From contig NC_002939.5 of NCBI RefSeq assembly GCF_000007985.2, positions 1,350,001-1,382,000 on the forward strand: 32,000 bases of DNA, read 5' to 3'. The stretch comes from Geobacter sulfurreducens PCA (GTDB lineage: Bacteria > Desulfobacterota > Desulfuromonadia > Geobacterales > Geobacteraceae). The notes beneath the pieces were generated by a model. That model worked only from the letters and a program-made list of their open reading frames with translations, did no database searches and was not told the DNA's origin. Numbering within the stretch: position 1 is the stretch's first letter; each line of letters begins with the position of its first letter. Of this stretch, positions 10,114 through 25,494 are shown piece by piece. A program made the translations under genes and the position numbers.

Positions 10114-13100
10114 ATGCGCACACGGATCAAGCCCGGCCGGATTGCCGGTTTCCTTGCTCAAATGATGCTCCTGCTGGCGCCGACGGTGTCGCTGGCCGAG
10201 GTCTGCGCCAACACCATCCAGGCCGACGTGGTCGCCATCGACCAGCAGATCGTCCATAACCGGCTTGGGGCCTTCAACCCCATCTCCATGATCTTCGCCC
10301 TGCGTCAGGATGTGGTAAATGCGGCGAACGGCCTGACCGAAGCAGAGGGGGGAATTCTCACCCCGGGCAATGTGCGGCTGCGCGACGACAAGCGACCGCG
10401 TCCCCTCGTCCTCCGGGTGAACGAGGGCGATTGCCTCCGGATCAGCTTCCAGAACCTGCTCGCTCCCACACCCCTTGTTCTCCCGCCCGATGCGGCCGGC
10501 GAATTCGCCGGTCAGCCGGCCACCCGTCACGTGGGCATGGCGATCATGGGGGTATCCTTCGCCGACATGGTCTCCTCAGGTGTCAATGTCGGTAACAACC
10601 CGGTGTCCGGCTACGCGGCTCCCGGCGAGACCAAAGTGTATCTCGTTCGGGGAGAGCACGAGGGTGGGTACCACATCAACAGCATCGCCGACAACGTGAG
10701 CGGCGAGGGGATCCAGGGCCAGACCTCCTTCGGCCTGTTCGGCGCACTCAACGTACAGAAGAAGGGGGCCGTCTGGTACCGCAACCAGACCACGAATGCG
10801 GAACTGCTCATGGCCACTACTGGGCTTACCCCCAGCGGGCATCCGATCATCGATTACGACGCGGTCTACCCCGTCGGACACCGCTACGCCGGGCAGCCGA
10901 TCCTGCGCATCCTCGACCCGGTGACCAACAAGATCGTTCATAACGAGGTCAATGCCATCATCACCGGACCCAACGGCGGCGATTTTCCCGCCGGCACCTA
11001 CCAGCGCAACCCGACTTATCCCGATCGCGACCGGGCATTCCGGGAGTTCACGGTCATGTTCCACGACGAGGTGGAGACCGTGCAGCCGTTCCCGATCTTC
11101 ATCGATCCCCAGTTCAAGTTCACCCTCGGCGGCGTCAAGGATGGCTTCATGATCAACTACGGTTCGGCCGCCGTCGGTACCGAGGTCGTGGCCAACCGCT
11201 CCGGGGTCGGTCCCACCTGGGACTGCGCCGAGTGCAAGTTCGAGGAATTTTTCCTCTCCTCGTGGGCGGTGAGCGATCCGGCCCTGCTGGTGGATGTGCC
11301 CGCCAACACCACGGACGTTAACGGTAACCTGATCGTGGGACCCAAGGCCACCAAGGCTCTCTATCCCGATGATCCGTCCAATGTCTTCCACGCCTATATC
11401 AACGACCGGGCCAAGATCCGCAACCTGCACTTCGGCAAGGAATTCCACGTCTTTCACCTCCACGCCCAGCAGTGGCTCTTCAGCCCGGACGACGACGGCA
11501 GCAACTACCTTGACGCCCAGGGCATCGGCCCGGGTGGCTCCTACACCTACGAGATCGCCTACAACTCGGGCAACCGGAACAAGATCGTGGGCGACACCAT
11601 CTTCCACTGCCACTTTTACCCCCACTTTGCCCAAGGGATGTGGGCGCTGTACCGCCTGCATGACGTGTTCGAGGCCGGGACCCAGCTCGATGCCAACGGG
11701 CTGCCGATCGCCACTGCCCGCGCCCTTCCGGACGGCGAGATCGCGGCGGGGACCCCGATTCCCGCGGTCGTTCCCATCCCGACCCTGCCCATGGCGCCCA
11801 TCCCCGGCAAGGTGCGTATTGCCCAGGTTCCCGGCTATCCCGGCGGGCAGGTGACCTACGACGAGCCCGACAAGAACGCCGGCTATCCCTTCAGCCTCGG
11901 GATGAAGGCGGGGCACCGCCCGGCTACGCCTCCCCTCGACCTGATCGACGATGGCGGGCTTCCCCGGCACATTGTCCGGGGTACCAACAACCCCCTGAAT
12001 CCGTCAACGCTCGACCCGGCTATTACCCATCACGAGGAAACCACCCTGAGCTTCGACAAGGTGCTCGTGGCGGCGGAGGCTGAGCAGGTCCCCGAAAGCG
12101 GTTCCCGTTCGGAACGGGCCGCCATGGATTTCCACGCGCGGGAATTCCATCCGACGTTCCTGCCCAACGGCTCTCCTGGCCAGTTCGTGACCAACGGGCT
12201 GCCGCCGGTTCCCGGCGCGCCCTACAATGACCCGTGCCGCGGCGATAAGGGCGGGGCTGTCGGCGTGCCAAGGACCTACAAGGGCGCCGTTATCCAGTTC
12301 GACCTGAAGATGAACAAGGTCGGTCACCACTTCCCCCAATCGCGCATCATCACCCTCTGGGGCGACGCCCAGGCGACGGTGGACGGCACCCGGCCGCCGG
12401 AGCCGTTTTTCATCAGGGCCAACTCCAACGACTGCGTGAACTTCTACCATACCAACCTGGTCCCGAGCGTGTACGAGCAGGATGACTACCAGGTCAAGAC
12501 CCCGACCGATGTCATCGGCCAGCACATCCACTTGGTGAAGTTCGATGTCACCGCATCCGACGGCTCCGCCAACGGCTTCAACTACGAGGACGGCACCATG
12601 AGCCCCGACGAGGTGCGTGAGCGGATCCATGCCTTCAACCTGACCGGTGGACTGATCCAACCCGACGGAGTGACGAAGGTTGCCCTTGCCGCCAAGCCCC
12701 ATCCCTATTTCGGCTCGACCTTCAACGGCCGCGACATCACCGGTGCCCGGACCACGGTCCAGCGTTGGTACATCGACAACATCCGCAACAACCGGGGCGA
12801 GGACCGGACCCTGGGCAACGTCTTCACCCACGATCACTTTGGTCCGTCCACGCATCAGCAGACCGGCCTCTACGCCAGCCTGCTCACCGAGCCCCAGGGG
12901 TCCCGCTGGCGTGATCCCCAGACCGGCCAGTTCATGGGCGGGCGCTTCGACGGCGGGCCGACCAGCTGGCGGGCTGACATCATTACCACTAATCCCGCGG
13001 AGAGCTACCGGGAGTTCATGGTCCATGTGGCGGACTTCACGCTCGCCTACGAGGACGGCGCCTGTCATACGGTTCCGTGCGTCAACCCGGCCAAGGCGAT

Positions 13101-15072
13101 CAAGCCGCCGGGCATGGAAGAGATCGGCCTGCCGTTCCTGTTCCGCAAGCCCCAGATCTGCCCCAACGGGACCCTGCCTCCCTGCCCCGAGGCCATTTCC
13201 GCCGAGGATCCGGGAACGTTCCTGGTCAACTACCGCAACGAGCCCGTGGCGGAGCGCGTGCGCCTGCCCGGCACCAACGTCCAGGCTCCGGGGCTTGCCG
13301 GCGATCTGGCCTATGCCCTGTCGTCGCGGGTACAGCGCGCCAACCCCCTGCTGAACCAGCAGCCCGCGTTCTATCCGCCGCTCACCCCCAACGTGCTGCC
13401 GGGTGACCCGTTCACACCGCTCTTCCAGGTCTACGACAACGACCGGGTCAACGTGCGGATTCAGGCGGGCGCCGACGAGGAGTCGCACACCGCGTCCATT
13501 CACGGCGTCAAGTGGCTCCAATCCTACGGGTCGCCCAACTCCGGGTTCCGCAACTCCCAACAGTTGGGCATTTCCGAGCAGTTCCAACTGCGGATGCCCG
13601 TGATTCCCGACCGGCTCCAGGTGGGGCAGACCGCGGACTACCTTTACACGCTTAACGCCTCCAGCGACGGTTACTGGAGCGGCATTTGGGGACTTATGCG
13701 CTCCTACGCCGTCCGGCAGCCGAATCTGCTGCCGCTGCCCAACAACCCCATCGGCACGGTTCCCTTCACGGCCGCCAACGATGCCTCGTTTAGCGGTCCC
13801 TGCCCCACGAGCGCGTTGGTCCGCTCCTACGACGTCACAGCCGTGGCGGCCCGCACTGCTCTGCCCGGCGGCTCGCTGGTCTACAACTCCCGCATCGGAC
13901 CCCAGGGGATCGGCCCCCTTCAGGACCCCGACGCCGTTCTCTATGTGAGGACAGGGGATCTCAACCCGGACGGCACCCTGAAGGCGGGTGTCCCTGTTGA
14001 ACCGCTTGTTCTCCGGGCTGCCGCGGGCGAGTGCATCGACGTGACCTTGCGCAACAGCCTGCCGGCCGTGCTGACCGAAAGTCCCGGCTACAGTGCGTTG
14101 CATCCGATCGTGGAGTTCTTCAACTTCAACGAAGTGCGGACCTCCAGTATCGTGGGGCTCCACCCGCAGCTGGTGGAGTACGATGTCACCCGGAGCGACG
14201 GCACCGTGGTCGGCAACAATCAGGATCAGACCGTGCCGCCTGGCGGGGTGAGACAGTACCGCTGGTATGCCGGAGACGTGAAGGTGGTCAACAACATGCG
14301 CGTTGCAACTCCTATCGAGTTCGGCGCCAGCAGTCTCATTTCAACCGACCTGATCAAGCATGCCTCCCGGGGCGCTCTGGGTGCGCTCATCATCGAGCCG
14401 CTCGGCTCCAGCTGGATCGAGGACTATCCGACTCCCCACCCGAGCGTTTCCGCCGGTCAGCGGCCGTCCCGGGCCTCGGCCACCGTGATCAGGGCCAACG
14501 GCACCACGTTCCGTGAGCAGGTGCTGGTCATCCAGGACGACGTCGCGCTGCGTTTCGGCGACAATACCCCCGTGCCCTTCGTTACCGGCATGGAGGACGC
14601 CCTCGACACGGGCATGAAGGCATTCAACTACAGGACCGAGCCGCTCTGGTTCCGGCTCGGGTTCAGCCCCTTGAATCTTCCGTTCCAGAACCAGGCCATC
14701 AATTTCGCGAACGTACTCCACAACAGCACGACGGGAGGCGATCCGGAGACGCCGGTCTTCACCGTAAATGCAGGCGATGAGACCCGCGTGCGCCTGGTGC
14801 AGCCGGCCGGTCACAACCGTCACCATACCTTCGCCCTCTACGGGCATGTGTGGCAGCGCGAGCCCCATACCAACAACTCCACCAGGCTCGGGCTCAACCC
14901 GAAATCGTTCTGGCGCGGCAGCCAGGATGTGGTGGGACCCGCGTCCCACTGGGATTTCCTCCTGGACCACGGTGCCGGCGGTGCCTTCCAGGCCAAGGGG
15001 GACTACCTCTACCGCGATATGCTGCCCATCCACTTCCTGAACGGGTTGTGGGGTATCATGAGGGTACAGTAG
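10114..15072 (+). CDS. Very large exported multicopper-oxidase-like protein (reminiscent of Geobacter OmpB/OmpC and the MofA/MnxG class)
   Basis: The open frame extends back to 9520, but that part overlaps the upstream gene. Preferred start is the ATG at 10114, with AGGAG at 10101-10105 (8-nt spacing), giving MRTRIKPGRIAGFLAQMMLLLAPTVSLA, a Sec-type leader with no twin arginine. An alternative ATG at 10084 overlaps the upstream TGA. Copper-ligand motifs: HVFHLH (11446-11463), canonical HCHFYPHFAQGM (11605-11640), QHIHLVK (12523-12531), HDHFGPSTH (12829-) and GHNRHHTFALYGH near the C-terminus. Confidence 0.85.
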   Translation: MRTRIKPGRIAGFLAQMMLLLAPTVSLAEVCANTIQADVVAIDQQIVHNRLGAFNPISMIFALRQDVVNAANGLTEAEGGILTPGNVRLRDDKRPRPLVLRVNEGDCLRISFQNLLAPTPLVLPPDAAGEFAGQPATRHVGMAIMGVSFADMVSSGVNVGNNPVSGYAAPGETKVYLVRGEHEGGYHINSIADNVSGEGIQGQTSFGLFGALNVQKKGAVWYRNQTTNAELLMATTGLTPSGHPIIDYDAVYPVGHRYAGQPILRILDPVTNKIVHNEVNAIITGPNGGDFPAGTYQRNPTYPDRDRAFREFTVMFHDEVETVQPFPIFIDPQFKFTLGGVKDGFMINYGSAAVGTEVVANRSGVGPTWDCAECKFEEFFLSSWAVSDPALLVDVPANTTDVNGNLIVGPKATKALYPDDPSNVFHAYINDRAKIRNLHFGKEFHVFHLHAQQWLFSPDDDGSNYLDAQGIGPGGSYTYEIAYNSGNRNKIVGDTIFHCHFYPHFAQGMWALYRLHDVFEAGTQLDANGLPIATARALPDGEIAAGTPIPAVVPIPTLPMAPIPGKVRIAQVPGYPGGQVTYDEPDKNAGYPFSLGMKAGHRPATPPLDLIDDGGLPRHIVRGTNNPLNPSTLDPAITHHEETTLSFDKVLVAAEAEQVPESGSRSERAAMDFHAREFHPTFLPNGSPGQFVTNGLPPVPGAPYNDPCRGDKGGAVGVPRTYKGAVIQFDLKMNKVGHHFPQSRIITLWGDAQATVDGTRPPEPFFIRANSNDCVNFYHTNLVPSVYEQDDYQVKTPTDVIGQHIHLVKFDVTASDGSANGFNYEDGTMSPDEVRERIHAFNLTGGLIQPDGVTKVALAAKPHPYFGSTFNGRDITGARTTVQRWYIDNIRNNRGEDRTLGNVFTHDHFGPSTHQQTGLYASLLTEPQGSRWRDPQTGQFMGGRFDGGPTSWRADIITTNPAESYREFMVHVADFTLAYEDGACHTVPCVNPAKAIKPPGMEEIGLPFLFRKPQICPNGTLPPCPEAISAEDPGTFLVNYRNEPVAERVRLPGTNVQAPGLAGDLAYALSSRVQRANPLLNQQPAFYPPLTPNVLPGDPFTPLFQVYDNDRVNVRIQAGADEESHTASIHGVKWLQSYGSPNSGFRNSQQLGISEQFQLRMPVIPDRLQVGQTADYLYTLNASSDGYWSGIWGLMRSYAVRQPNLLPLPNNPIGTVPFTAANDASFSGPCPTSALVRSYDVTAVAARTALPGGSLVYNSRIGPQGIGPLQDPDAVLYVRTGDLNPDGTLKAGVPVEPLVLRAAAGECIDVTLRNSLPAVLTESPGYSALHPIVEFFNFNEVRTSSIVGLHPQLVEYDVTRSDGTVVGNNQDQTVPPGGVRQYRWYAGDVKVVNNMRVATPIEFGASSLISTDLIKHASRGALGALIIEPLGSSWIEDYPTPHPSVSAGQRPSRASATVIRANGTTFREQVLVIQDDVALRFGDNTPVPFVTGMEDALDTGMKAFNYRTEPLWFRLGFSPLNLPFQNQAINFANVLHNSTTGGDPETPVFTVNAGDETRVRLVQPAGHNRHHTFALYGHVWQREPHTNNSTRLGLNPKSFWRGSQDVVGPASHWDFLLDHGAGGAFQAKGDYLYRDMLPIHFLNGLWGIMRVQ

Positions 15073-15110: not shown

Positions 15111-17150
15111 ATGTCAGCTTTGATTGATACGTGGTTTCTCGGGTGCAGGGCGGCTGCGACAGCCGTCCTGTACGTCCTTTTCGCGGTCGTGGCCGGCGGA
15201 GCCGTTTCAGCGGCCCGGGCAGCGACCGTCGCCGCCTCTGCCCCGGCACCGGTCACGGTCGGGAGCGGAAAGAAGGCCGTGCGCCAGGGCATCAGCCTTG
15301 AGCTCCTGGTGAAACCGACCCATGCCGAGGACGGTTTTTCGGCGGCAGTGGTGGAAGGGGCCTATGCGGATGTCAGCCTGAAGATGACCGATGCCGCCAC
15401 AGGCCACCCGGTAACGGTCATGCAGCCGCGGGTCTGGATCGACCTGCGCAAGGGCACCGGCGATTTCCGTGAAAAGCAGATGGCGTGCTCCGACAAGGTC
15501 CGCACCTATCTCCAGGGGACCCTTTCCTTCAGGCCCGACATCGACCTCAACAGCTATTTCGTCCTTACCCTCAACAACGACGCCTCCATTTCCGTGATCG
15601 ACCCCATCATCGGGGTTGCCGGCTATTCGCAGCTCTATGCCATGATCCTCCTCAAGCGGCCGGGCGAGGATTGGGTCTTCAGCTTCGACGGCAAACGGCT
15701 CTATGTGACCATGCCAAAGGCGGGCGAGGTTGCCGAAATCGACACGGACAGCCTTGCGGTCGTGCGGAACATCCCAGCCGGCGCCATGCCGGTGCGCATG
15801 GCCTTTCAACCCGATTCGCGCTACCTGTGGGTGGGCAATGATTCCAGCGACCCAGCCCGGAGCGGCGTCACCGTTATCGATCCCTTTTCGGGAACGCAGG
15901 CGGCTTTCATCCAAACCGGCGCCGGCCACCACGAGATCGCCTTTGCCGACGACAGCCGCTATGCCTTTGTCACGAACCAGCAGAGCGGCACCCTCACCAT
16001 CATCGACATCCAGAGCCTCGCGCCGGTGAAGACCTTGCGGCTGGGCGACGGCCCTGTCAGCGTTGCCTACTCCGCCCTGAGCAAGTGCGCGCACGTGGTG
16101 TGCGAGGGAGACGGCAACCTCCTGGTCGTGGATGGGCTGAGCCACGAGATTATTAGCCGGAAGACCTTCGAGCCCGGTTTCCGCGAGGTGCGGTTTGCGC
16201 CGGGAGACCGCTGGTACTTCACCGTGAACGGCAAAAACGGCCAGATCCTGGTCTTCGACGCGGCCGGCAACGAACTGCTCCATTCGACCGTGGTGGCGGG
16301 GCGGCCGGAGCATGTCAGTTTCAGTACGGAGTTTGCCTATATCCGGTCCCTCGGCACGGCCGACGTGACGCTGATCCCCCTTGCCGCCCTCGGCAAGGCC
16401 GCCATTCTGACCCCCCTCGTCGTGTCCGGCGGCTCCAGGCCCCCCGCCGATTCGCCCCTTCTTCCCCCCACGGCGGACCCCATCGTGGTGACGCCTGAGG
16501 GAAATTCCGTCCTTATCGCGAGCCCGAGCGACGGCGCGGTGGTCTATTACATGGAGGGGATGGGGGTTCCCATGGGGAGCTTCAAGACCTATGGTCGGCT
16601 CCCCCGGGCCGTCAACGTCATCAACCGGCAGTTGCGCCAGAACGTTCCCGGCGTGTTCAGTTCCCGGGTCAAGATTCCCCTGGCGGGGACCTACGACGTG
16701 GCCGTGCTGCTCGATTCGCCCCGGATCGTCCAGTGCTTCGAGTTCTCGGCCGACGCTAATCCGGCGCTGCAGCGCCTGAAAACGGAGCGGCCGGTTATGG
16801 TGGAATTCGTCGGCTCAGCCCTGCGGGTGGAGGCCGGTCGTGAGTCCGTGGTCAGGTTCAGGGTGACCGATCCGGTGACGCACGAGCCCGTGGCCGACCT
16901 GCGCGATCTGATCGTGGTGACCTCCCTGGTGCCGACCGGGGCCTGGCGTCAGCAACTGGTGTCCCGCCCCGTCGGCAACGGCATCTACGAGGTCACGTTC
17001 ACGGCACGCAAAGTGGGAATCTATTCATTCAATTTCGCGATTCCTTCCCTGAAGGTGAAGCTCTATCAGCTTGCCGGCATGATGATCCATGCCGTGGAAA
17101 CACCGGCTGAGGCGGGTTCCGACGTTCCTGCCGGCCAGAAAAAGGATTAG
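15111..17150 (+). CDS. Exported YVTN-type beta-propeller protein with Ig-like (FixH/YtkA-like) flanking domains
   Basis: 679-aa ORF, GGAG 8 nt upstream. Hydrophobic N-terminus AVLYVLFAVVAGGAVSAARA. YVTN-like repeats: RLYVTMPKAGEVAEIDTDSLAVVRNIPAG, RYLWVGNDSS...VTVIDPFSG, RYAFVTNQQSGTLTIIDIQSLAPVKTLRLG. The C-terminal segment FRVTDPVTHEPVADL...GIYEVTFTARKVGIYSFNF resembles metal-associated Ig-like domains; that call is weak. Confidence 0.8.
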   Translation: MSALIDTWFLGCRAAATAVLYVLFAVVAGGAVSAARAATVAASAPAPVTVGSGKKAVRQGISLELLVKPTHAEDGFSAAVVEGAYADVSLKMTDAATGHPVTVMQPRVWIDLRKGTGDFREKQMACSDKVRTYLQGTLSFRPDIDLNSYFVLTLNNDASISVIDPIIGVAGYSQLYAMILLKRPGEDWVFSFDGKRLYVTMPKAGEVAEIDTDSLAVVRNIPAGAMPVRMAFQPDSRYLWVGNDSSDPARSGVTVIDPFSGTQAAFIQTGAGHHEIAFADDSRYAFVTNQQSGTLTIIDIQSLAPVKTLRLGDGPVSVAYSALSKCAHVVCEGDGNLLVVDGLSHEIISRKTFEPGFREVRFAPGDRWYFTVNGKNGQILVFDAAGNELLHSTVVAGRPEHVSFSTEFAYIRSLGTADVTLIPLAALGKAAILTPLVVSGGSRPPADSPLLPPTADPIVVTPEGNSVLIASPSDGAVVYYMEGMGVPMGSFKTYGRLPRAVNVINRQLRQNVPGVFSSRVKIPLAGTYDVAVLLDSPRIVQCFEFSADANPALQRLKTERPVMVEFVGSALRVEAGRESVVRFRVTDPVTHEPVADLRDLIVVTSLVPTGAWRQQLVSRPVGNGIYEVTFTARKVGIYSFNFAIPSLKVKLYQLAGMMIHAVETPAEAGSDVPAGQKKD

Positions 17151-17153
17151 ATC

Positions 17154-18497
17154 ATGGGATCGAGGATTGCCGCACACCTGTTGATCATCGGACTGGTTCT
17201 CGTCTGCTGGCTGGAATCCGCCCCGGCTGCCGGCATCACCATCAAGGCGACGGGGGAGGGGATTTACGGCATCGATGTCGCCGCGCTCGATGATATTGCG
17301 GTGGTGGATCTGGAGGTCGGCTACGATACCCTGAACTTCGATGCCCCCCGGATCGATCGGGGAGCCGCGCTCCCCTCCGATGTGTCGTTCATCACCAACA
17401 CGGCCATTCCGGGCGAGCTCCGCGTGATCCTCAAACGCTCCCGGGCCATCACCGCCGGCGGCCGGATTGCGGTGCTGCGGTTCCAGCCGATCGGCGAGAC
17501 CCCGGGCCGGCTCCTGTCGGCCCATGCCCGCCTCATCACTACCAAGGGGGTGTCCCACGCCCTGCCGGTCGGGGTCGTCAATGCCCAGCCCAAACCATCT
17601 GTCGGCCCCGGCTCCATCACGGACAAGATCTCCGGGGGCACCGGCTCCCCGTCGCCTCTCGATACGGCCGCCGGCGATATGACGCCTTCACCTGTTGCGA
17701 GCGGCGGATCCGGGTCGCGGAACACGCCCGGAGACCGGTATGCCGGCCGGGGAGGCGCAGATGCCACCGTAACCTTTGCCGATTCTTCACCGGGAGAGGC
17801 GAAACCGGCAGCGGCCCCGCCGGGTTCCCCGTCTCCGGCGGCGACCCCGGCTGTTCCCGACATGGCGTCTCAACCGGCTGAGCAGGCCGCGACGCGGGCC
17901 ACGGCCGACCAGGCACGCGCCGTCCCGGCCCAGACTATTGTCTATGGACGGGTGCTGGACCGCTTCAGTGAGGTCAGGGGCGAAACCGCCGCCGCGCTGG
18001 TGGCGCTCTTCACCCCGCCGGCGGGCCAAAAGGTGACGCAACAGCCACAGGTTGCCATCTCCGACGGTCGTACCGTCGTGACCCTGAGGGTTGAACTGCC
18101 CCGGAGCTTCGAGGGGACGCCGGTCTTTGCCGTCACCAGCGCAAAGACCCTCTCGTGGGAGCAGGACGGAGAGGGGACATGGACGGTCCGGGTGCTGCCC
18201 GACGCCGACACCCTGGACGCCGTGTTCGTCACCTATTTCGGCGAGGGCCTGATCCAGTATCCCCTGGTCGTGGCTCCGGCGCTGACTCGCCTGCCGGGGG
18301 GCGCACCTGCCCTGGACGAAGCCGGTTTCGCCCTGTTCCTCAAGGAGCGGGCGCGGGAAGGGAAACCGCGTTTCGATCTTAATGGGGACGGGACAAGGGA
18401 TTATCGCGACGATTACCTTTTTACGGCCAATTTCATCGCCCGGGGACGGCAGGCGGCAGGTACCCCTGCCCAGTCGCCCACGCGGTCTGACAACTAG
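17154..18497 (+). CDS. Secreted protein with an N-terminal cohesin-like domain, a Pro/Ala/Ser-rich linker and a C-terminal dockerin-like calcium loop
   Basis: 447-aa ORF starting 3 nt after the previous stop, with AAGGA 7 nt upstream. Signal peptide MGSRIAAHLLIIGLVLVCWLESAPA. Cohesin-like pattern VVDLEVGYDTLNFD...GELRVILKR...GGRIAVLRFQPIG. Low-complexity linker at about 17604-17935. DLNGDGTRDYRDD at 18375-18413 fits the dockerin/EF-hand loop DxNxDGxxDxxD. Confidence 0.7.
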   Translation: MGSRIAAHLLIIGLVLVCWLESAPAAGITIKATGEGIYGIDVAALDDIAVVDLEVGYDTLNFDAPRIDRGAALPSDVSFITNTAIPGELRVILKRSRAITAGGRIAVLRFQPIGETPGRLLSAHARLITTKGVSHALPVGVVNAQPKPSVGPGSITDKISGGTGSPSPLDTAAGDMTPSPVASGGSGSRNTPGDRYAGRGGADATVTFADSSPGEAKPAAAPPGSPSPAATPAVPDMASQPAEQAATRATADQARAVPAQTIVYGRVLDRFSEVRGETAAALVALFTPPAGQKVTQQPQVAISDGRTVVTLRVELPRSFEGTPVFAVTSAKTLSWEQDGEGTWTVRVLPDADTLDAVFVTYFGEGLIQYPLVVAPALTRLPGGAPALDEAGFALFLKERAREGKPRFDLNGDGTRDYRDDYLFTANFIARGRQAAGTPAQSPTRSDN

Positions 18498-18517
18498 TCG
18501 CTTACAGGGTGCTGCAT

Positions 18518-19102
18518 ATGAAAACGAATAGCTGGCGTATCCTTCTCATTCTCGTTTCCTGTGTCTGGCTGAGTCAGCCCCTGTCCGCCGTGGCGGCACC
18601 GGCCACGTTCGCCTCGGCCACGGTGAAGCTTCATGATCTGGAATTGCTCGACCAGGATGGAAAGTCCCGGCGCTTCCAGAGCGATGTCATCGGCGACCGG
18701 CTGGTGGCCATTACGTTCACCTACACCACCTGTACCACCATCTGCCCCATCCTCGACTCGATCTTCGTGACGCTCCAGAAAAAGCTCGGTGCCCGGATGG
18801 GAAAGGATTTCCACCTGATCACCATGAGTATCGACCCGGTCAACGACATCCCGAAGCGGCTCAAGGCCTATTCCCTGAAACTCGGCGCCCGTCCCGGCTG
18901 GACATTCCTGACCGGCAGCAAGGTGAACATGGACAAGGTGCTCGTGGGCCTCGACATGTACAGTCCGGACATTTACAACCACCCCCCCTCCATTATCGTC
19001 GGGGATGGCAAGACCGGGGCCTGGCAACGGTTTTACGGTTTCCCGTCGGCCGACAAGATTCTTTCGTCCCTCACTGAACTGCAGAAGGCGCGTCACCATT
19101 GA
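18518..19102 (+). CDS. SCO1/SenC-family periplasmic copper chaperone (thioredoxin fold)
   Basis: The ORF is open from a GTG at 18509. The ATG at 18518 has better spacing to AGGGTG and gives MKTNSWRILLILVSCVWLSQPLSA. CxxxC motif TYTTCTTICP (18731-18745), plus MSIDPVNDIPKRLKAY, PGWTFLTGS and the downstream His in YNHPPS. Confidence 0.85.
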   Translation: MKTNSWRILLILVSCVWLSQPLSAVAAPATFASATVKLHDLELLDQDGKSRRFQSDVIGDRLVAITFTYTTCTTICPILDSIFVTLQKKLGARMGKDFHLITMSIDPVNDIPKRLKAYSLKLGARPGWTFLTGSKVNMDKVLVGLDMYSPDIYNHPPSIIVGDGKTGAWQRFYGFPSADKILSSLTELQKARHH

Positions 19103-19119
19103 ACCGCCGGGAGAACCAC

Positions 19120-19743
19120 GTGAGAATCACGTTGTCAGCACCTGTCATTGCGCTTTGCCTGTTGCTTGCGGCAACATTACTGCCATGTACCGCCGCGGCC
19201 GCGCCCCAGTCGCCGCAGGGAACCGCTCTCGACCGCAGGACCGATGAAGCGGCCCGCGCCTATTTTACCGACCTCAAGCTGACAACCCACGAAGGCAAGG
19301 TCGTCCGCTTCTATACGGACATCCTTAAGGACAGGGTTGTTCTGATTCACTTTTTCTATACCAATTGCAAGACCGTGGCCACGCTCCAGACCAAGGTTCT
19401 CTCGGACCTGCAGCCGCTGCTGGGCGATCGCCTCGGCAAAGATATCTTTCTGGTGTCGATCAGCGTGGACCCGGCCCGCGACACCCTCGAGCATACCCGC
19501 GCCTATGCCCGGGCGTTTGCTCCCCGCCCGGGCTGGACCTTTCTGACCGGTTCCAAGGTGAACCTGGACTGGGTGAACTACAAACTGGGCAACTACAAGG
19601 AGAATCCCGAAGAGCACGAGACGTTCTTTCTCCTCGGGAACCTCAGGACCGGCCACTGGATCAAGAATAAACCGGAGACCTCGGCGCGAACCCTGGCGGA
19701 GCACCTGATCCAACTGGCCGACGAAAAACAGGTGAAGCGATGA
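19120..19743 (+). CDS. SCO1/SenC-like paralogue with a degenerate metal site (CxxxA)
   Basis: The frame is open from a TTG at 19099. The GTG at 19120 is preferred (GGGAG at 19109-19113, 6-nt spacing) and gives a signal-peptide-like RITLSAPVIALCLLLAATLLPCTAAAA. Aligns with the upstream SCO protein (ISVDPARDTLEHTRAY, PGWTFLTGSKVN), but the motif reads FFYTNCKTVAT (19366-19380). Confidence 0.75.
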   Translation: MRITLSAPVIALCLLLAATLLPCTAAAAPQSPQGTALDRRTDEAARAYFTDLKLTTHEGKVVRFYTDILKDRVVLIHFFYTNCKTVATLQTKVLSDLQPLLGDRLGKDIFLVSISVDPARDTLEHTRAYARAFAPRPGWTFLTGSKVNLDWVNYKLGNYKENPEEHETFFLLGNLRTGHWIKNKPETSARTLAEHLIQLADEKQVKR

Positions 19744-21365
19744 TCGGCATGACGGTACGGACGGCGAGATCATGCCTGACCTCACTGGCGCTGCTGCTCC
19801 TGGCTTTTGCGGCCGGAGCACTGGCTCCCCTGCAGCAGTCGTGGGCTTCGCCCGGGCTCACTCCGGCCGAGGAGCGGGGGCGGCAGATTTACTTCGACGG
19901 TACGAGCCCGTCGGGGGCGCCGATCATTGCCTATTTCGGCAAGGACTACCTGGAGGTGCCCGGCGAATCGGCCACATGCACCAGTTGTCACGGCTTCGAC
20001 GGACTCGGCCGTACCGAAAGCGGCGTCATCCCTTCCAATGTCACTTGGCAGCACCTTATGAAAAGCTACGGCCACGTCCACCCCGACGGCCAGGTCCACG
20101 GGGCGTTCAACGAAGAGAGCCTGAAGAGCTACATGCGTGACGGCCTCTACCCCGGCGGGGTGCTGGGTGATCCGGCCATGCCGGTTTACGAGATCTCCGA
20201 GCAGGACCTGGATGACCTCATCGCCTACATGAAACGGCTGGGCATCCACCCCGATCCGGGTGTCAGCGCCACTACCGTGCGAGTCGGCACGATCATTCCC
20301 GCTGAAGGAGCCACGGCTGCTCTCGGCGAAGCTCTCACCGCCACGGTGCGCGCCTCGTTCGCCGATGTGAAGGAGCGGGGCGGAGTGTATGGCAGAAACC
20401 CCGAGCTGGTCGTCGCCACGATTGCCTCCGGCCAGGATCTGAAGTCGGTGTTCCGTCGCCTGGTGGAGGAACAGCAGGTGTTCGCCCTGCTCAATACCTT
20501 GACTCCCGGTCAGGAGCGCGAACTGGAAACCCTGGCGGAAGAATTTCATGTTCCCCTCATCGCCCCCTTCGCGCCTGTCCATACGGATGATCAGCTGCTG
20601 CACCGCTACCGGTTCCACCTGCACGGGGGGGTGCGGGAACAGTCGCTCGGCCTGGTTTCGTTCGCCATCAAGAAGCGTGGCGCCGGGGATTCCCGGATCG
20701 CCATCGTCTACCCCGCGCGGGAAGAGATCGAAGAGGTGGCGGTATCCATCGATGATGCCTGCCGGGCCGGCGGAGGGCAGCGGGTTGTCAGGATTTCCCA
20801 TGCTCCCGGCCTGTTCGACGCGGCGGCTACCGTGAGCCGGCTGCAAGCGGAGCAGGTTGAGGTGGTGTTTTTCCTGGGCGGGGAAGGGGAGTCTGACTCC
20901 TTTTTCCGGGAGGCCGAAGCGCGCGCCTACATTCCGTCGTTTTTCATGCCGGGCTTCCTGTTGGGTAAAGGGATTACCCAGGTGCCGGCGGCATTCAGCG
21001 GAAAGGTCTGGCTGGCGTTTCCCTCCCTGCCTGAGGACCGGAAAGAATGGGGCCTGGCAGAATTCAACGCTGTCATGGGGCGGCAGAGAGTGGTTGTGGG
21101 CAACCCAACCGTCCAGTTGACGGCTTTTACCGGGGCCAAACTTTTTCTGGAAGGGCTGCGGCGCGCAGGGCGGGACCTCAGCAGGGAACGGTTCGTGGAA
21201 ACCTTGGAAAAGGTGTTCGAGTATGACACGGGTCTTGCCCAGACCATTACCTATACTAGAAACCACCGTATCGGCACGTTGGGTACCCACGTAGTGGTGG
21301 TGGATCCGCTCCAGGCGGGCACGGAGAAGTTTATTATACCGCAGGGATGGATCGACCTGGAGTAG
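19740..21365 (+). CDS. Exported fusion protein: class I c-type cytochrome domain plus type-1 periplasmic solute-binding (LivK-like) domain
   Basis: 541-aa ORF whose ATG overlaps the previous stop (ATGA). Signal peptide SLALLLLAFAAGALA. Single haem motif CTSCH at 19977-19991, with a distal PAMPVYEISEQDLDDLIAYMKRL typical of small c-type cytochromes. The remaining ~400 aa resemble branched-chain amino-acid-type ABC substrate-binding proteins (family call from overall pattern only). Confidence 0.8.
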   Translation: MIGMTVRTARSCLTSLALLLLAFAAGALAPLQQSWASPGLTPAEERGRQIYFDGTSPSGAPIIAYFGKDYLEVPGESATCTSCHGFDGLGRTESGVIPSNVTWQHLMKSYGHVHPDGQVHGAFNEESLKSYMRDGLYPGGVLGDPAMPVYEISEQDLDDLIAYMKRLGIHPDPGVSATTVRVGTIIPAEGATAALGEALTATVRASFADVKERGGVYGRNPELVVATIASGQDLKSVFRRLVEEQQVFALLNTLTPGQERELETLAEEFHVPLIAPFAPVHTDDQLLHRYRFHLHGGVREQSLGLVSFAIKKRGAGDSRIAIVYPAREEIEEVAVSIDDACRAGGGQRVVRISHAPGLFDAAATVSRLQAEQVEVVFFLGGEGESDSFFREAEARAYIPSFFMPGFLLGKGITQVPAAFSGKVWLAFPSLPEDRKEWGLAEFNAVMGRQRVVVGNPTVQLTAFTGAKLFLEGLRRAGRDLSRERFVETLEKVFEYDTGLAQTITYTRNHRIGTLGTHVVVVDPLQAGTEKFIIPQGWIDLE

Positions 21366-21394
21366 CGTGGTGAGCGGTTATTAAAAAATGGGGC

Positions 21395-21423
21395 TTGTTC
21401 TTCGCATGCCTCCCCTGTATTGT
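21395..21423 (+). promoter_or_regulatory. Possible internal sigma-70-type promoter for the NosL/ABC sub-cluster
   Basis: TTGTTC (21395-21400), a 17-nt spacer, then TATTGT (21418-21423), in the only sizeable gap (90 nt) within the cluster. Weak hexamers. Confidence 0.2.
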
Positions 21424-21455
21424 AATGATTGGATTTTTTCCCGAGGAGTCCCGGC

Positions 21456-21938
21456 ATGAATACCTTTCTGACGATGCTGCTTGCCTTGGTGCTGACAGTC
21501 GGTGCGGTCCCGGCCTCTGGGGCGGGAACAGCCACCAAGCTGCAGATTGCCCCCCGCGATAAATGTCCGGTCTGCGGCATGTTCGTGGCCAAGTTTCCTT
21601 CATTTGCAGCCCGGATCACCTATCGCGACGGTTCCTACGCCGTGTTCGACGGTGCCAAGGACATGTTCACCTATTACCTCAATCTGAAAAAATATGCCCC
21701 CGGCAAGTCCGCCGGACAGATCGCCTCAATCCTGGTGACCGATTATTACGGGCTCAGCCCCATTGACGGCATGAGCGCCCATTACGTGATCGGTAGCGAC
21801 GTGCTCGGGCCCATGGGGCACGAACTGATTCCATTCGCCCGCCCGGCCGATGCTGAGGAGTTCAAGAAGGATCACCGGGGGACGCGGATCGTCCGGTTCC
21901 GGGATGTGAACGCCGCCCTCATCGCAGGCCTGGACTGA
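21456..21938 (+). CDS. NosL-family copper chaperone-like protein
   Basis: The frame is open from a TTG at 21429. The ATG at 21456 is preferred (GAGGAG at 21443-21448, 7-nt spacing) and gives the signal peptide MNTFLTMLLALVLTVGAVPASGA. It contains KCPVCGMFVAKFP (21564-21581) and VFDGAKDMFTYY, as I recall them from NosL-family proteins. Confidence 0.8.
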   Translation: MNTFLTMLLALVLTVGAVPASGAGTATKLQIAPRDKCPVCGMFVAKFPSFAARITYRDGSYAVFDGAKDMFTYYLNLKKYAPGKSAGQIASILVTDYYGLSPIDGMSAHYVIGSDVLGPMGHELIPFARPADAEEFKKDHRGTRIVRFRDVNAALIAGLD

Positions 21939-21943
21939 CCGCC

Positions 21944-22249
21944 GTGACGGTGCGCAAGTCCACGGTCTTCATCGCCTTTGTCGCGGCGGAGCTGCTGGTG
22001 CTGATTGCCATTGTCGTCCACGCCTTTATCGTCGGCGGCAGGGAATCCCGTCTCGCCGAGCAGCGTGCCATGGTGAAGCGCCTCTCCCTCACTGACCTGG
22101 CGCTGTTCACTGATGCACGTTATACCCGGCATCCGTCCATGGCAGACCTCCACAGTCCGTTCCAGGATTACCCGCTTTCGTTCGAACATTTTCCCTCCGG
22201 CTCCCTCATGGCGCCGCCTCCCCACGTGAGGACCTATGGCCGGCATTGA
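21944..22249 (+). CDS. Small single-pass membrane protein, unknown function
   Basis: 101-aa ORF with a GTG start 5 nt after the NosL stop. One hydrophobic helix, VFIAFVAAELLVLIAIVVHAFIV. It overlaps the next gene by 14 nt, which suggests translational coupling. No recognisable motif. Confidence 0.55.
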   Translation: MTVRKSTVFIAFVAAELLVLIAIVVHAFIVGGRESRLAEQRAMVKRLSLTDLALFTDARYTRHPSMADLHSPFQDYPLSFEHFPSGSLMAPPPHVRTYGRH

Positions 22250-23369
22250 AAAATACCGGAGCATCATCGATTTCACCCTGTCTTCATTGCTGCGGCGCAA
22301 GGGCAAGAACAGCGCCCTGCTCTTCGTCTACACCCTGGTGGTGTTTCTCCTGGCGTCGCTCATGCTCTACACCCAGGCCCTGCGCCGTGAGGCGGCGGCG
22401 GTCCTGGCCGATGCCCCTGAACTGGTGGTCCAGCGGATCATGGCGGGCCGGCACGACCTGATTCCGGTTGACTATAGCGAGAAAATCAGGGAGATCCGAG
22501 GGGTTCGCTCGGTGCGTGCGCGGTTGTGGGGGTACTACTACGATCCGCTCTTCGGCGCCAACTATACCCTGATGGTCCCGGAGCAGTTCACCTGGGAGCC
22601 GGGAAGCGTAGCGGTGGGGAACGGTCTGACCCGCAGCAGCATGGCGGCGAAAGACAATATCATGCCCTTCTACGATCACACGGGAACCCTGGTGACCTTT
22701 ACGGTGGCCGAGGTGCTGCCGCCTTCTACGGAGATGGTTTCAGCGGACCTGGTGCTCATGGGGACGGACGATTTCCGTACACTCTTCGGCGTGCCGCAGG
22801 GCATGGCAACCGACCTCGTGGTGGAGGTCGCCAATCCAGTGGAAGTCCCCACCATCGCCGGCAAGATCGTAAAACTCCTCCCCGATACCCGTCCCATTTC
22901 CCGGGACGAGATCCTGCGCACCTACGACGCGGTCTTCAACTGGCGCAGCGGGATCATGCTGGCCGTTCTCTGTGGCGCGCTCCTCTCCTTTTTTATTTTC
23001 GCCTGGGACAAGGCCACCGGCCTGTCCGCCGAGGAACGAAAGGAGATCGGCATTCTCAAGGCGGTTGGATGGGATACCGGCGACGTGCTGGTAATGAAAT
23101 TCGGCGAAGGGGCAATCATCTCGCTCACGGCATTTCTCGTGGGGGGAACCCTGGCCTACGGGCACGTCTTCTTCACCTCGGCCGCCCTGTTCGGGCCGGT
23201 ACTCAAGGGGTGGTCGGTGCTCTATCCGTCGTTCCGGCTGGTTCCGCACGTCGACTTCGGGCAGCTGGCAGTGCTTTTCTTTCTTGTGGTGGTCCCCTAT
23301 ACCGTGGCGACCATCGTTCCCGCATGGCGGGCGGCCACCGTGGATCCCGATTCGGTCATGAGAGGGTAG
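22236..23369 (+). CDS. ABC transporter permease, FtsX/MacB (type VII) family
   Basis: 377-aa ORF. TM1 (ALLFVYTLVVFLLASLMLY), then a ~200-aa extracytoplasmic domain, then three C-terminal TM helices with the FtsX-like segment EIGILKAVGWDTGDVLVMKFGEGAIISL. Confidence 0.85.
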   Translation: MAGIEKYRSIIDFTLSSLLRRKGKNSALLFVYTLVVFLLASLMLYTQALRREAAAVLADAPELVVQRIMAGRHDLIPVDYSEKIREIRGVRSVRARLWGYYYDPLFGANYTLMVPEQFTWEPGSVAVGNGLTRSSMAAKDNIMPFYDHTGTLVTFTVAEVLPPSTEMVSADLVLMGTDDFRTLFGVPQGMATDLVVEVANPVEVPTIAGKIVKLLPDTRPISRDEILRTYDAVFNWRSGIMLAVLCGALLSFFIFAWDKATGLSAEERKEIGILKAVGWDTGDVLVMKFGEGAIISLTAFLVGGTLAYGHVFFTSAALFGPVLKGWSVLYPSFRLVPHVDFGQLAVLFFLVVVPYTVATIVPAWRAATVDPDSVMRG

Positions 23370-23370
23370 C

Positions 23371-24054
23371 GTGATATCCCTGCACGATGTGAGCAAGATC
23401 TTCAACAGCGGCAAAGCCAACGAATACGCGGCGCTCCGGGGCATTACCGTCGATATTGCTCCCTGCCGCGTGACGGTCCTGAAAGGGCCCAGCGGCTCGG
23501 GTAAAACCACCCTGCTCAGTATCCTTGGCGGGATGGCGCGCCCTACGACCGGCCGGATCGTCCTGTTCGATCGCGAGATCACCAGTCTGCCCGAGCGGTT
23601 CCTGAGCGATATCAGGCGCCGTACCTTCGGGTTTATCTTCCAGCAGTTCAACCTGATCCGCGGCATCAGCCTGCTGGAAAACGTCATGATCCCCGCCTAC
23701 CCCATGGGAGAGCGCCATGGGCTGCTCAAGGCGAGGGCCATGTCCACCCTGGAGGTGTACGGCCTTGCCGGCAGAGCCGCGACCAGGGTGGAACTCCTCT
23801 CGGGGGGGGAGATGCAGCGGGCCGCCATCGCCCGGGCCCTGATCAACGATCCGCCCGTGATCATCGCGGACGAGCCCACGGCGCACCTGGACACGAAGCT
23901 CTCCGGCGAATTCCTGGATCATATGACCCGCCTCAAGGATGAGGGGAAGACCATCATCATGGCGAGCCACGATCCGCTGGTGATCGACGCGGGGCTGGTC
24001 GACCGGATTGTGGCCATCCGCGACGGCAGGCTGGCCGACGGGGCGGCCCCGTGA
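23371..24054 (+). CDS. ABC transporter ATP-binding protein (MacB/LolD-like)
   Basis: 227-aa ORF with a GTG 1 nt after the permease stop. Walker [11 protein letters not shown]-loop FQQFNL, signature [15 protein letters not shown], Walker [14 protein letters not shown]-loop ASHD. Confidence 0.93.
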
Positions 24055-25046
24055 TCCTTCACCCGGCCGTCATCGCCCTGTTCGTCGGTTCGCTCCTGAC
24101 CAGCGGCATGCTCGTGGCGACGGCGTTCTTCGCGGTTAAGATCCTGCGCCACTGGGACCTTGCCAGCGGCAGCGAACGGCAGCTTTCGTTCGAGCGCCGT
24201 ACCTACCTTCTTGCCACAATCATGACCTGCTGCTGCGTGTTCCAGCTCCTGTCCCTGTTTCTCTTCATTCACGTGGCCGACAGCCTGAGCGCGCTCTTTC
24301 CCGGAGCCATGTGCGCGGCAGGGACCCTCAACCTGAATCGTTTCGGGTACCCTACGCTGGTCCTTAAAATAACCACTTTTCTGCTGGCCGGTTTCTGGCT
24401 CATCCTCAATCATGCGGACAACCAGGGATATGATTATCCCCTCATCCGGATCAAATACTCGCTGCTGCTGGTGATAACGCCGCTGCTGCTGGCCGAGACG
24501 GGACTGCAGGGGGGGTATTTTCTCTCCTTGCAGCCCCGGGTGATCACGTCATGCTGCGGGAGCCTGTTCGGCGGGGAGTCGAGCGGCATGGTTCCAACCC
24601 TGACTACCCTGGGGGATGTTCCGGCGCTCGCCACGTTGGGAGGAGTCTTAACGCTCACCCTGATCTGCGGGGGGATCTACCTGTGGCTGGGAAGGATGGG
24701 GTACCTGTTTGCCGCGTTATCCGCCGCAACCTTCGCCGTCGGCGTGGTGGGGCTGCTCTCGGCGATCCCGGTCTACATCTATGCCCTTCCCACCCACCAC
24801 TGCCCCTTCTGCATGCTGCACCGCGAATACGGGCATGTGGGCTATCTCCTCTACGCGACCCTGCTTGGCGGTGGGGTGGCGGGGGTGGGTATGGGAGGGC
24901 TCCAGCCCTTCAGGCGGGTGGCGAGCCTGGCATCGTCGCTTCCTATGCTCCAGCGCCGTCTGGTCCTTTTCGCCATGGTCTGCTACGGGCTGTTCGGAGG
25001 GATCGCGGCCTGGCAGGTGATGGTTTCCGAGTTACGGCTCGTGTAG
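24051..25046 (+). CDS. Cys-rich polytopic (~8 TM) membrane protein, unknown family
   Basis: 331-aa ORF whose GTG overlaps the ATPase stop (GTGA). Multiple hydrophobic helices. Cysteine clusters: CCC (24228-24236), SCC (24549-24557) and HHCPFC (24795-24812). Confidence 0.7.
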   Translation: MILHPAVIALFVGSLLTSGMLVATAFFAVKILRHWDLASGSERQLSFERRTYLLATIMTCCCVFQLLSLFLFIHVADSLSALFPGAMCAAGTLNLNRFGYPTLVLKITTFLLAGFWLILNHADNQGYDYPLIRIKYSLLLVITPLLLAETGLQGGYFLSLQPRVITSCCGSLFGGESSGMVPTLTTLGDVPALATLGGVLTLTLICGGIYLWLGRMGYLFAALSAATFAVGVVGLLSAIPVYIYALPTHHCPFCMLHREYGHVGYLLYATLLGGGVAGVGMGGLQPFRRVASLASSLPMLQRRLVLFAMVCYGLFGGIAAWQVMVSELRLV

Positions 25047-25118: not shown

Positions 25119-25415
25119 CTATTTCGCTTTGGGGAGTTCCAGTTTCGGTTCCTGCGCCCTGCGGAACAGCAGGAAGGTTCGGCCGAGGACCTGGGCCACC
25201 TCGGCGCCGCAGGCCGAGGCCAGTTCTTCGGCAGCTTCGTGACGGTCCAGGAGGCAGCTTTCCAGGATCTTGACCTTGATCAGTTCATGGTGCTCGAGAG
25301 CCTCATCGGTCTCTTTGACAAGGGCCTCGCTGATCTCGCCCTTGCCGATGGTGATGACCGGAGCAAGGGAATGTCCCAGGCCCCGGAGGTGTCGTTTCTG
25401 TTTGCCGGTTAGCAT
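25119..25415 (-). CDS. yhbY: YhbY-family (CRM domain) ribosome-assembly RNA-binding protein
   Basis: The ORF is open from 25478, but the conserved start is the ATG at 25415: MLTGKQKRHLRGLGHSLAPVITIGKGEISEALVKETDEALEHHELIKVKI. This matches the YhbY signature (L..KQ...LR..AH.L.P.v.iGk.G...). Confidence 0.85.
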   Translation of the reverse strand: MLTGKQKRHLRGLGHSLAPVITIGKGEISEALVKETDEALEHHELIKVKILESCLLDRHEAAEELASACGAEVAQVLGRTFLLFRRAQEPKLELPKAK

Positions 25416-25460
25416 GCGTACGGATCCTTTTCGTTGGGTGAATGCAGATGGTATAGCACG

Positions 25461-25486: not shown

Positions 25487-25494
25487 ATGCCCCG

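Follow-up and report, generated by a model that had tools for sequence, protein, structure and literature searches.

A NosL-type copper chaperone gene beside a type VII ABC system in Geobacter sulfurreducens: a probable ATP-driven copper-handling cassette

The five-gene cassette

In Geobacter sulfurreducens PCA, a stretch of 32,000 nucleotides (contig NC_002939.5, positions 1,350,001 to 1,382,000; hereafter, the window, with positions counted from its first letter) contains, at 21456-25046 on the forward strand, five tightly packed genes in which a copper chaperone of the NosL type is followed by the components of an ATP-binding cassette (ABC) system. The first gene (21456..21938) encodes a NosL-type periplasmic Cu(I) chaperone of 160 amino acids (aa) that belongs to PF05573; it starts with ATG, a longer open reading frame (ORF) with a TTG start that begins at 21429 being the alternative. 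It is followed by the gene for a small conserved protein of 101 aa (21944..22249) and, directly downstream of the latter, by the gene for an FtsX-type (type VII ABC) permease of 377 aa (22236..23369), identified through PF02687, an AlphaFold2 model and a Foldseek search. The fourth gene (23371..24054) encodes an ABC ATPase of 227 aa of the LolD/FtsE/MacB clade, with matches to PF00005 and NCBIfam models and intact motifs, and the fifth (24051..25046) a Cys/His-rich membrane protein of 331 aa from an unnamed family, for which an AlphaFold2 model gives eight transmembrane (TM) helices. We refer to this row as the cassette.

The four junctions measure +5, -14, +1 and -4 nt, the small-protein gene overlapping the FtsX gene by 14 nt; the two overlaps and the 1-nt gap suggest translational coupling. 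An AT-rich spacer of 90 nt (21366-21455) precedes nosL, and the rest of the cassette genes touch or overlap. In all five frames, the GC content is 0.75-0.86 at the third codon position and 0.43-0.46 at the second, a pattern that is lacking in the antisense and alternative ORFs that overlap the cassette; with the second-position values near 0.45, this marks the five frames as coding. Scans of the cassette for sigma-70 promoters and terminators yielded nothing above shuffled sequences, and there is no terminator-like site between the cassette and the upstream genes. The gene directly downstream is convergent. In CP010430, a sequence labeled Geobacter sulfurreducens that is 98% identical, the gene calls match those of the cassette, and NosL is annotated with the same name and length; the window FtsX and NosL proteins are found on more than 100 contigs labeled G. 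sulfurreducens, G. anodireducens or G. soli. Thus, the ORF coordinates, the GC pattern and the family matches bear out the gene identities and junctions given in a preliminary description of this DNA, which had been made from its letters and ORFs.

Conservation of the gene row

A one-genome-per-species collection was scanned with the FtsX permease, which produced at least 585 matching stretches. The synteny counts given here refer to the best 80 of these at least 585 loci, with 10 kb visible on each side of the permease; neighbors were called with our own ORF and phmmer pipeline, and representatives were spot-checked with curated models. The hosts of these loci belong to Geobacterales, Desulfuromonadales, Syntrophales, Desulfobacterales and Nitrospirota/Thermodesulfovibrionales, along with single metagenome-assembled genomes of Chloroflexota, Rokubacteria, Fibrobacteres and Dongiaceae.

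The companions of FtsX are the small protein in 79 loci (in all of these, directly upstream of FtsX), the ATPase in 76, the Cys-rich protein in 69 and NosL in 62. Of the 74 loci with enough upstream sequence, 60 encode NosL immediately upstream in the same orientation, and the complete five-gene row, with the same order and strand, is found in 54 of the 80 species-level loci, in several phyla. Such an arrangement is far beyond chance. The preliminary description had named a lack of conservation of the NosL-FtsX adjacency outside this genome as a finding that would speak against its proposal; the adjacency proves to be conserved across phyla, and the contrary view, for which loci L001 and L002, both without NosL, might be taken, is overturned by the 80-locus survey. 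The suggestion that the small and the Cys-rich proteins are extra subunits likewise fits their constancy as companions (79 and 69 of 80 loci).

NosL itself is not obligatory, since about 19% of the assessable loci, including those of the nearest relatives, lack it beside the core: it is absent in L004, L019 and L046, in Desulfuromonas versatilis (L001), and in L005-L007 and L016. Because the last four loci, which are from the closest relatives, contain the same oxidase block as the window (see below), nosL seems to be readily gained or lost. The conserved core therefore comprises four genes, to which NosL is often added as an accessory. L023 has its nosL between the genes for FtsX and the ATPase. 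The distance matrices of the partners correlate with that of FtsX (r 0.75 for the ATPase, 0.71 for the Cys-rich protein and 0.52 for NosL), which is weak evidence of co-evolution, given that shared phylogeny confounds the comparison.

Some loci depart from the common layout. In three from the Nitrospirota/Thermodesulfovibrio group (L055, L056 and L062), the small protein and FtsX genes stand together, with the ATPase and Cys-rich protein genes not adjacent. In D. versatilis (L001, 12195-13136), a c-type cytochrome gene is inserted between the ATPase and Cys-rich protein genes, and in L085 (8020-8505) a multihaem cytochrome gene lies upstream of NosL; cytochrome genes in or beside the cassette hint at a redox step.

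The NosL protein

The window NosL matches PF05573 with an E-value of 1.3e-30 (106.8 bits, with a cut-off of 24) over model positions 2-130 of 131. The NosL chain of P. stutzeri (7osf_H) matches it at E 8e-10, with the CxxCGM and G-x-M-G motifs aligned, and the NosL chain of S. denitrificans at E 1.6e-5. In the S. denitrificans protein, the ligands of Cu(I) are Cys62, Met64 and Met145, all three of them essential and strictly conserved (Prasser et al., PMC8457098). The CPVCGM and GPMG motifs of the window protein align with the C62, M64 and M145 positions and are at least 90% conserved among 61 cassette NosL orthologues; by alignment, all three essential Cu(I) ligands are kept. The Zn(II) site of NosL is formed by Cys59, Cys88 and Asp92 and is not fully conserved even in known NosL proteins (PMC8457098). 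The window NosL retains the C59 and D92 positions and has Asp at the C88 position (FDGxKD), as does the cassette consensus.

The protein carries a signal peptide ending in ...PASGAG and has no Cys before CPVCGM; a lipobox is missing in 56 of 60 cassette NosL orthologues, and the window NosL likewise lacks the lipobox Cys. It is, accordingly, predicted to be soluble and not lipid-anchored, and in this property, in the Asp at the C88 position and in its location outside a nos cluster it differs from the NosL proteins of nos clusters. In 8 loci there is a second NosL paralogue, a divergent copy that scores 25-45 bits against the window NosL; such tandem pairs of NosL-family genes lie upstream of the cassette in L084 (8520-9529), L085 (8506-9666) and six further loci.

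The permease and the ATPase

The permease matches PF02687 at E 3.9e-8 (33.8 bits, cut-off 25.5). Its AlphaFold2 model, with a predicted local distance difference test score (pLDDT) of 78, has 4 TM helices, with residues 60-235 (about 175 aa) forming an extracytoplasmic domain. Profile searches of the PDB match LolC, LolF and YtrF, and the Foldseek matches of the model are LolE, LolC, MacB, HrtB, YbbP and BceB, all with a probability of 1.0, with E-values from 2e-13 (best 2.4e-13) to 1e-7 and a template-modeling score (TM-score) of up to 0.66 with MacB (5gko); BceAB-S complexes are included among these matches. The modeled fold of the permease is that of the type VII, MacB/LolC-like proteins, in agreement with the FtsX/MacB-like assignment made earlier. 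Its score with the NCBIfam model lolCE is 29 bits against a cut-off of 362. Altogether, 6871 homologues were detected, the best 120 of which are all at least 61% identical.

The ATPase matches PF00005 at E 1.1e-27, and its best NCBIfam matches are FtsE, LolD, DevA and MacB (E 1e-50 to 1e-47), all below the equivalog cut-offs (169 bits with a cut-off of 265 for FtsE, and 169 with a cut-off of 308 for LolD). Its motifs are intact: Walker A GPSGSGKT, signature LSGGE, Walker B with its Glu, VIIADEP, and H-loop SHD.

Type VII ABC systems pass ATP-driven motion to periplasmic partners rather than pump across the membrane. With the known systems of this type (MacAB-TolC, LolCDE, FtsEX-EnvC, HrtBA, YbbAP-TesA and BceAB), the cassette shares an FtsX permease of four helices, in which a large extracytoplasmic domain resembling Porter/Sabre separates TM1 from TM2, and the ATPase of the LolD/FtsE type, and its single permease gene implies a homodimer, as in MacB, FtsX and HrtB. 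Unlike the characterized members, it is an equivalog of none of them, its NCBIfam scores being far below the cut-offs, and it is new in its partners, which are a metallochaperone, a polytopic protein rich in Cys and His and a small conserved protein, where the known systems employ the MacA adaptor, the LolA carrier, the EnvC amidase activator, the TesA hydrolase or the BceS kinase. The cassette contains no MacA-type adaptor and no EnvC-like gene, and a literature search found no metal-related type VII system.

Two unnamed protein families

Neither the small protein nor the Cys-rich protein has a match in Pfam or NCBIfam. The small protein consists of a short basic N-terminus, one hydrophobic segment, often ending in x-H-A, and some 70 aa that follow; the segment is predicted to be either an anchor or a cleavable signal. 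An alignment of 83 sequences reveals the near-invariant motif LTDLxLFT(D/E)ARYTRHP...PFQDxPxSxEHFPSGS.

The Cys-rich protein has 8 TM helices and 10 Cys residues, and its AlphaFold2 model is scored at pLDDT 86 with a predicted TM-score (pTM) of 0.85. Across 30 homologues, the invariant positions are M87-C88, T166-S-C168-C169-G and P247-x-H-H-C251-P-F-C254. There are 3759 homologues, all named 'hypothetical' or 'membrane protein', and the family comprises 1198 representatives at the 50% clustering level. The protein and 30 members of its family lack Pfam or NCBIfam matches even at E 5, the protein has no PDB sequence match at E 10, and the Foldseek comparison of its model with the PDB gave a best E-value of 0.36 and a TM-score of at most 0.31, that is, no fold relative.

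Lys and Arg number 13.2 on loops 1, 3, 5 and 7 versus 3.5 on loops 2, 4 and 6 and the termini. By the positive-inside rule, these counts would place all the invariant Cys and His residues on the periplasmic side of the membrane, with the cytoplasmic loops being conserved but devoid of soft metal ligands, and we infer that the protein serves as a binding platform that faces the periplasm and not as a copper channel through the membrane. An electron relay of the DsbD/CcdA kind across the membrane is unlikely, as the conserved Cys residues would all be on one side; more generally, identity with DsbD/CcdA, DsbB, VKOR or a Mer transporter was rejected, there being no similarity in sequence or fold, along with the one-sided placement of the invariant Cys. 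The CxxCH-like string in HHCPFCMLH was also rejected as a haem attachment site: its final His is not conserved, the consensus being HHCPFCILQ. Finally, the longer homologues P0133, P0156, P0243 and P0244 are read as duplications or frameshift artefacts, not as domain fusions.

Copper-related genes around the cassette

For the wider gene neighborhoods, neighbors were clustered and representatives of the clusters checked against families, and the counts refer to the 41 loci for which the full 10 kb is available on both sides. Of these, 22 encode CusA/CusB, SCO1 or a multicopper oxidase within 10 kb, a rate that is far above expectation for families of few copies per genome. Taken separately, pumps of the CusA/CzcA type from the resistance-nodulation-division (RND) superfamily, CusB-type adaptors and SCO1 are each found in 11 loci, and multicopper oxidases in 8, as are fusions of cytochrome c with a periplasmic binding protein; the fusion gene lies directly upstream of the cassette in 8 loci. 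The RND pumps near the cassette show a CusA-type motif in TM4 and a Met-triad context, similar to those of E. coli CusA. In addition, a ResA/TlpA-like thioredoxin is encoded in 20 of the 80 loci, often directly upstream of nosL.

Three arrangements recur, namely, oxidase, CusB, CusA, sometimes TlpA, NosL and cassette; SCO1, cytochrome c fusion, NosL and cassette; and the MnxG block with the cassette behind it. L014 (5167-17390) encodes orthologues of the window's kinase and sigma-54-dependent regulator (463 and 691 bits) immediately upstream of NosL and the cassette; the oxidase block is missing between the regulators and NosL, and two DUF255/Thioredox_DsbH proteins follow the cassette.

The networks of copper chaperones such as SCO1/SenC-TlpA, PCuAC and CusF-CusCBA are similarly built on periplasmic Cu(I) carriers with soft ligands that are often encoded together with thioredoxin-like reductases, and SCO1 and TlpA-like genes are recurrent neighbors of the cassette. 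Unlike these networks, which function by passive ligand exchange and without a dedicated ATPase, the cassette has a full ABC motor and a putative Cys/His membrane platform.

The oxidase block of the window

In the window, the cassette is the last part of a longer row of genes on the forward strand. At its head are a PAS histidine kinase (452-2026) and a response regulator dependent on sigma-54 (2054-3463), both identified by Pfam, and a giant RCC1-repeat protein of 2082 aa (3839-10087) with about 14 RCC1 repeats, BNR/sortilin-like regions and Ig-like domains; an RCC1-like gene is also present upstream of the cassette in L067. Then follow a giant MnxG-like multicopper oxidase of 1652 aa with a signal peptide (10114..15072; NF041487), for which the same length is called in CP010430; a YVTN beta-propeller protein of 679 aa (15111..17150; YNCE and Cytochrom_D1 in Pfam, beta_rpt_yvtn in NCBIfam); a 447-aa protein with a Pro/Ala/Gly-rich middle and no Pfam or NCBIfam match (17154..18497); two SCO1/SenC copper chaperones (18509..19102, PF02630 at E 7e-14, with the public annotation starting at 18518; and 19099..19743, PF02630 at E 7e-16); and a fusion of cytochrome c and a periplasmic binding protein (19740..21365; PF13458 at E 6e-33 and PF00034). 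On the other side of the cassette and convergent with it, the reverse strand encodes a YhbY/CRM RNA-binding protein, an Hpt phosphotransfer protein and a hybrid histidine kinase-receiver (25119-27159); lepA, lepB and a LysR regulator are found from 27359 onward.

The oxidase matches the NCBIfam model NF041487 (copper_ox_MnxG) at E 0 with 1432 bits, and because this is below the equivalog cut-off of 3100, manganese oxidation is not implied. Its copper motifs are HxxHxH at residue 445 and HCHxxxHxxxxM at residue 498. The gene set at 10114-21365, that is, MnxG-like oxidase, YVTN propeller, SCO1, SCO1 and cytochrome c fusion, matches in content and order the mnxG operon of P. putida GB-1, which ends with the gene for a SurA-domain protein (PMC11409713, Table 4). 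In P. putida, manganese oxidation depends on the sigma-54-dependent Mnx two-component pathway MnxS1/S2/R (PMC11409713), and the genes for a sigma-54-dependent two-component system at the head of the window row parallel MnxS/MnxR. Unlike the P. putida operon, the window and related Geobacter and Pelobacter genomes have the ABC cassette at the position of the SurA gene, and the window additionally contains the genes for the 447-aa protein, whose orthologues occupy the same position in L005-L007 and are not found in the P. putida operon, and for the giant RCC1-repeat protein. A search of the window for sigma-54 promoters gave 14 matches versus 13.6 expected. A sigma-54-like sequence with two mismatches, TGGCAT-N5-TTGAT, is found at 3730-3745, about 95 nt upstream of the start of the RCC1 gene; such matches are not above chance.

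A cluster of G. sulfurreducens genes, GSU1251-GSU1257, has been described as an unstudied third multicopper-oxidase cluster that is induced on electrodes and that contains a 'cytochrome d' gene and two copper chaperones (Butler et al., PMC3495685). The oxidase block and the cassette together are probably GSU1251-1262. By position, the cassette would correspond to GSU1258-1262, a numbering based on LepA, which we presume to be GSU1266; the MnxG-like oxidase is probably GSU1252. In the literature searched, GSU1257 is named as the end of the GSU1251-1257 cluster, and the tags GSU1258-1262 were not found there.

Comparison with NosDFY

In the NosDFY-NosL system (PDB 7osf-7osj, 7znq), ATP-driven conformational switching passes Cu(I) from NosL to NosZ. 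The cassette is similar in that a chaperone of the NosL family with the same Cys/Met/Met ligands is encoded beside an ABC system and, by analogy, the periplasmic part rather than a transport pore would be the working end, with ATP making the hand-off directional. In contrast to NosDFY-NosL, the cassette lacks the beta-helix protein NosD, the six-helix ABC-2-type permease NosY and the client NosZ; its motor, with a 4-TM permease, is of type VII (FtsX/MacB), a different fold class; the small protein and the Cys/His-rich 8-TM protein are two extra dedicated components that have no counterpart in NosDFY; and the locus does without NosL in about a fifth of the lineages. Because NosD and NosY, which define that system, are missing, the cassette is not NosDFY, and the resemblance is one of functional analogy, although the cassette may work like NosDFY.

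According to the preliminary description, the cassette might be a non-orthologous replacement of NosDFY. The part of this proposal that concerns copper hand-off agrees with the Cu(I) ligands of NosL and with the copper context, but nothing points to a role in serving NosZ. Among the ORFs of the window, Pfam and NCBIfam searches identified no NosZ, NosD or NosY, no family of the size of NosZ or NosD recurs in 83 loci, and G. sulfurreducens is not known to carry nosZ. The 679-aa propeller was considered as a candidate NosZ and rejected: it scores 51 bits against a cut-off of 700 with the model of the clade III lactonase-type L-NosZ, a generic propeller similarity, and it is the YVTN propeller of the mnxG operon.

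It has been proposed that NosL-NosDFY sets without NosZ serve other cuproenzymes (PMC13068155), which supports the general idea, albeit with the canonical motor. We found no paper or curated family that describes the cassette, and none that links NosL to FtsX, MacB or Lol. The selenoprotein-associated SAO ABC locus described by Haft (bioRxiv 10.1101/2022.07.06.499078) was considered and set aside, as it has different components and neither FtsX nor NosL.

A possible mechanism and its alternatives

Taken together, the conserved gene row, the ligands of NosL and the copper-rich neighborhoods suggest that the cassette is probably an undescribed ATP-driven machine for copper handling that is present in hundreds of mostly anaerobic bacteria. 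Specifically, sequence and analogy give, in our judgment, about an even chance that the five genes encode a single machine of the cell envelope, which would handle Cu(I) at the periplasmic face of the inner membrane and serve multicopper oxidases. The fuller proposal, which we put forward more tentatively, is that of a new class of ATP-driven metallochaperone machines, composed of a type VII motor, a Cys/His platform of a new fold and a small partner, that would take Cu(I) over from NosL or SCO1 and load it into cuproproteins of the periplasm, multicopper oxidases among them. Such a machine can be envisaged as a homodimeric type VII motor of two FtsX subunits and two ATPases, in which ATP hydrolysis in the cytoplasm would move the periplasmic domains, permanently bound to the 8-helix subunit, which would expose five Cys, two His and one Met on its periplasmic side, with the small protein as a further, periplasmic or anchored, subunit. 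Soluble NosL would dock and exchange Cu(I) with the HHCPFC/SCC/MC site. A histidine of a partner protein has been proposed to mobilize Cu(I) from NosL (PMC8457098), a role that the invariant HH-C motif of the Cys-rich protein could fulfill. The ATP-driven switching would make the transfer directional, the motor cycles driving the release of Cu(I) to the client, so that copper would end in periplasmic cuproenzymes; SCO1 may replace NosL where the latter is absent, and the neighboring thioredoxin-like proteins would keep the ligand Cys residues reduced. Judging by gene content, multicopper oxidases are the likely clients, and in the window the client would most probably be the MnxG-like oxidase that is encoded upstream together with the two SCO1 chaperones.

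Several observations weigh against this interpretation. NosL does not adjoin the core in about 19% of the assessable loci, and the closest relatives with the same oxidase block (L005-L007 and L016) are among those that lack it; 19 of the 41 fully flanked loci lack CusAB, SCO1 and an oxidase within 10 kb. In FtsX, the periplasmic domain contains no invariant Cys, His or Met and, hence, is not an obvious copper carrier. For both the Cys-rich and the small protein, the orientation is a prediction. Finally, several loci join the cassette with CusBA and a CueO-like oxidase, a layout typical of copper resistance rather than of enzyme maturation.

The last point leads to the main rival, which we consider less likely, namely, copper detoxification or homeostasis, whereby Cu(I) captured in the periplasm or on the outside of the inner membrane would be passed via NosL to CusCBA to be exported or to a CueO-like oxidase to be oxidized, protecting anaerobes, to which Cu(I) is particularly toxic. 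The hosts are mostly strict anaerobes with few cuproenzymes, as would be expected in this case; islands made of a multicopper oxidase (about 800 aa, CueO/PhsA-like, with a twin-arginine translocation (Tat) signal), CusB, CusA, in some cases TlpA, NosL and the cassette are found at L021, L026, L032, L049, L050, L058, L066 and L072; and CusA with its TM4 motif is present in 11 of the 41 fully flanked loci. However, the oxidases of these islands themselves require copper and thus are potential clients, and the window, L005-L007 and L016 contain an operon of the maturation type, with oxidase and SCO1 and without Cus genes. Moreover, CusF-CusCBA is driven by the proton gradient, and known Cu(I) detoxification needs no ATP-driven periplasmic motor.

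That the cargo is not copper but Hg(II), Ag(I), Zn or Cd, or that the cassette is a periplasmic thiol/disulfide or sulfur relay with a redox-active Cys-rich protein, appears improbable. The invariant vicinal CC and CxxC motifs of this protein do resemble the Hg(II) sites of the MerT/MerF type, and the host range overlaps that of known Hg methylators. ResA/TlpA proteins in a quarter of the loci and the two DUF255 proteins of L014 would be compatible with a thiol relay, and NosL shares the MerB fold and also binds Zn (PMC8457098; PMC8261052). On the other hand, every metal-related neighbor belongs with copper, be it SCO1, a multicopper oxidase or a CusA-type pump; the Cys/Met/Met ligands specific to Cu(I) are retained in NosL; the surroundings of the loci showed no mer genes; and the Cys-rich protein, with its predicted one-sided Cys, shows no similarity to DsbD, DsbB, VKOR or Mer proteins.

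It is quite improbable that the cassette functions, in the manner of BceAB-BceS, in signaling, sensing a periplasmic condition such as the copper load and reporting it to the adjacent two-component system. Kinase and sigma-54-dependent regulator genes adjoin the cassette in the window, L014, L028, L038 and L044, the pair in L014 being orthologous to that of the window, and BceAB-S is among the structural matches of the permease; yet most loci have no regulator beside the cassette, the kinase is a soluble-looking PAS kinase, not an intramembrane-sensing one like BceS, and a chaperone together with a Cys/His-rich subunit is more easily explained by metal transfer. A generic MacB/Lol-type exporter of lipoproteins, lipids or antimicrobial peptides that lies beside nosL by chance, an outcome that the preliminary description had listed as contrary to its proposal and that might be suggested by the names given to the permease in the sources ('ABC-type lipoprotein release transport system permease' or 'cell division protein FtsX') and by its weak NCBIfam similarity to LolC/E, is highly improbable, given the strongly copper-related neighborhoods, the LolCE score far below its cut-off, the lack of a MacA-type adaptor, the mostly non-lipoprotein nature of cassette NosL and the adjacency to NosL and two dedicated unnamed proteins that is kept across phyla.

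Implications

How copper is supplied to periplasmic cuproenzymes other than cytochrome oxidase and NosZ is poorly understood, especially in anaerobes. If the proposed copper-handling machine is real, the NosDFY principle would gain a second, mechanistically independent, example and be extended to another motor, to clients other than NosZ and to hundreds of mostly anaerobic species. The machine would also be the first metal-related job for type VII ABC systems and would give a role to two sizeable unnamed protein families. G. sulfurreducens is genetically tractable, and in this organism the cassette adjoins an unstudied, electrode-induced multicopper oxidase cluster, whose MnxG-like oxidase would be the likely client of the machine.

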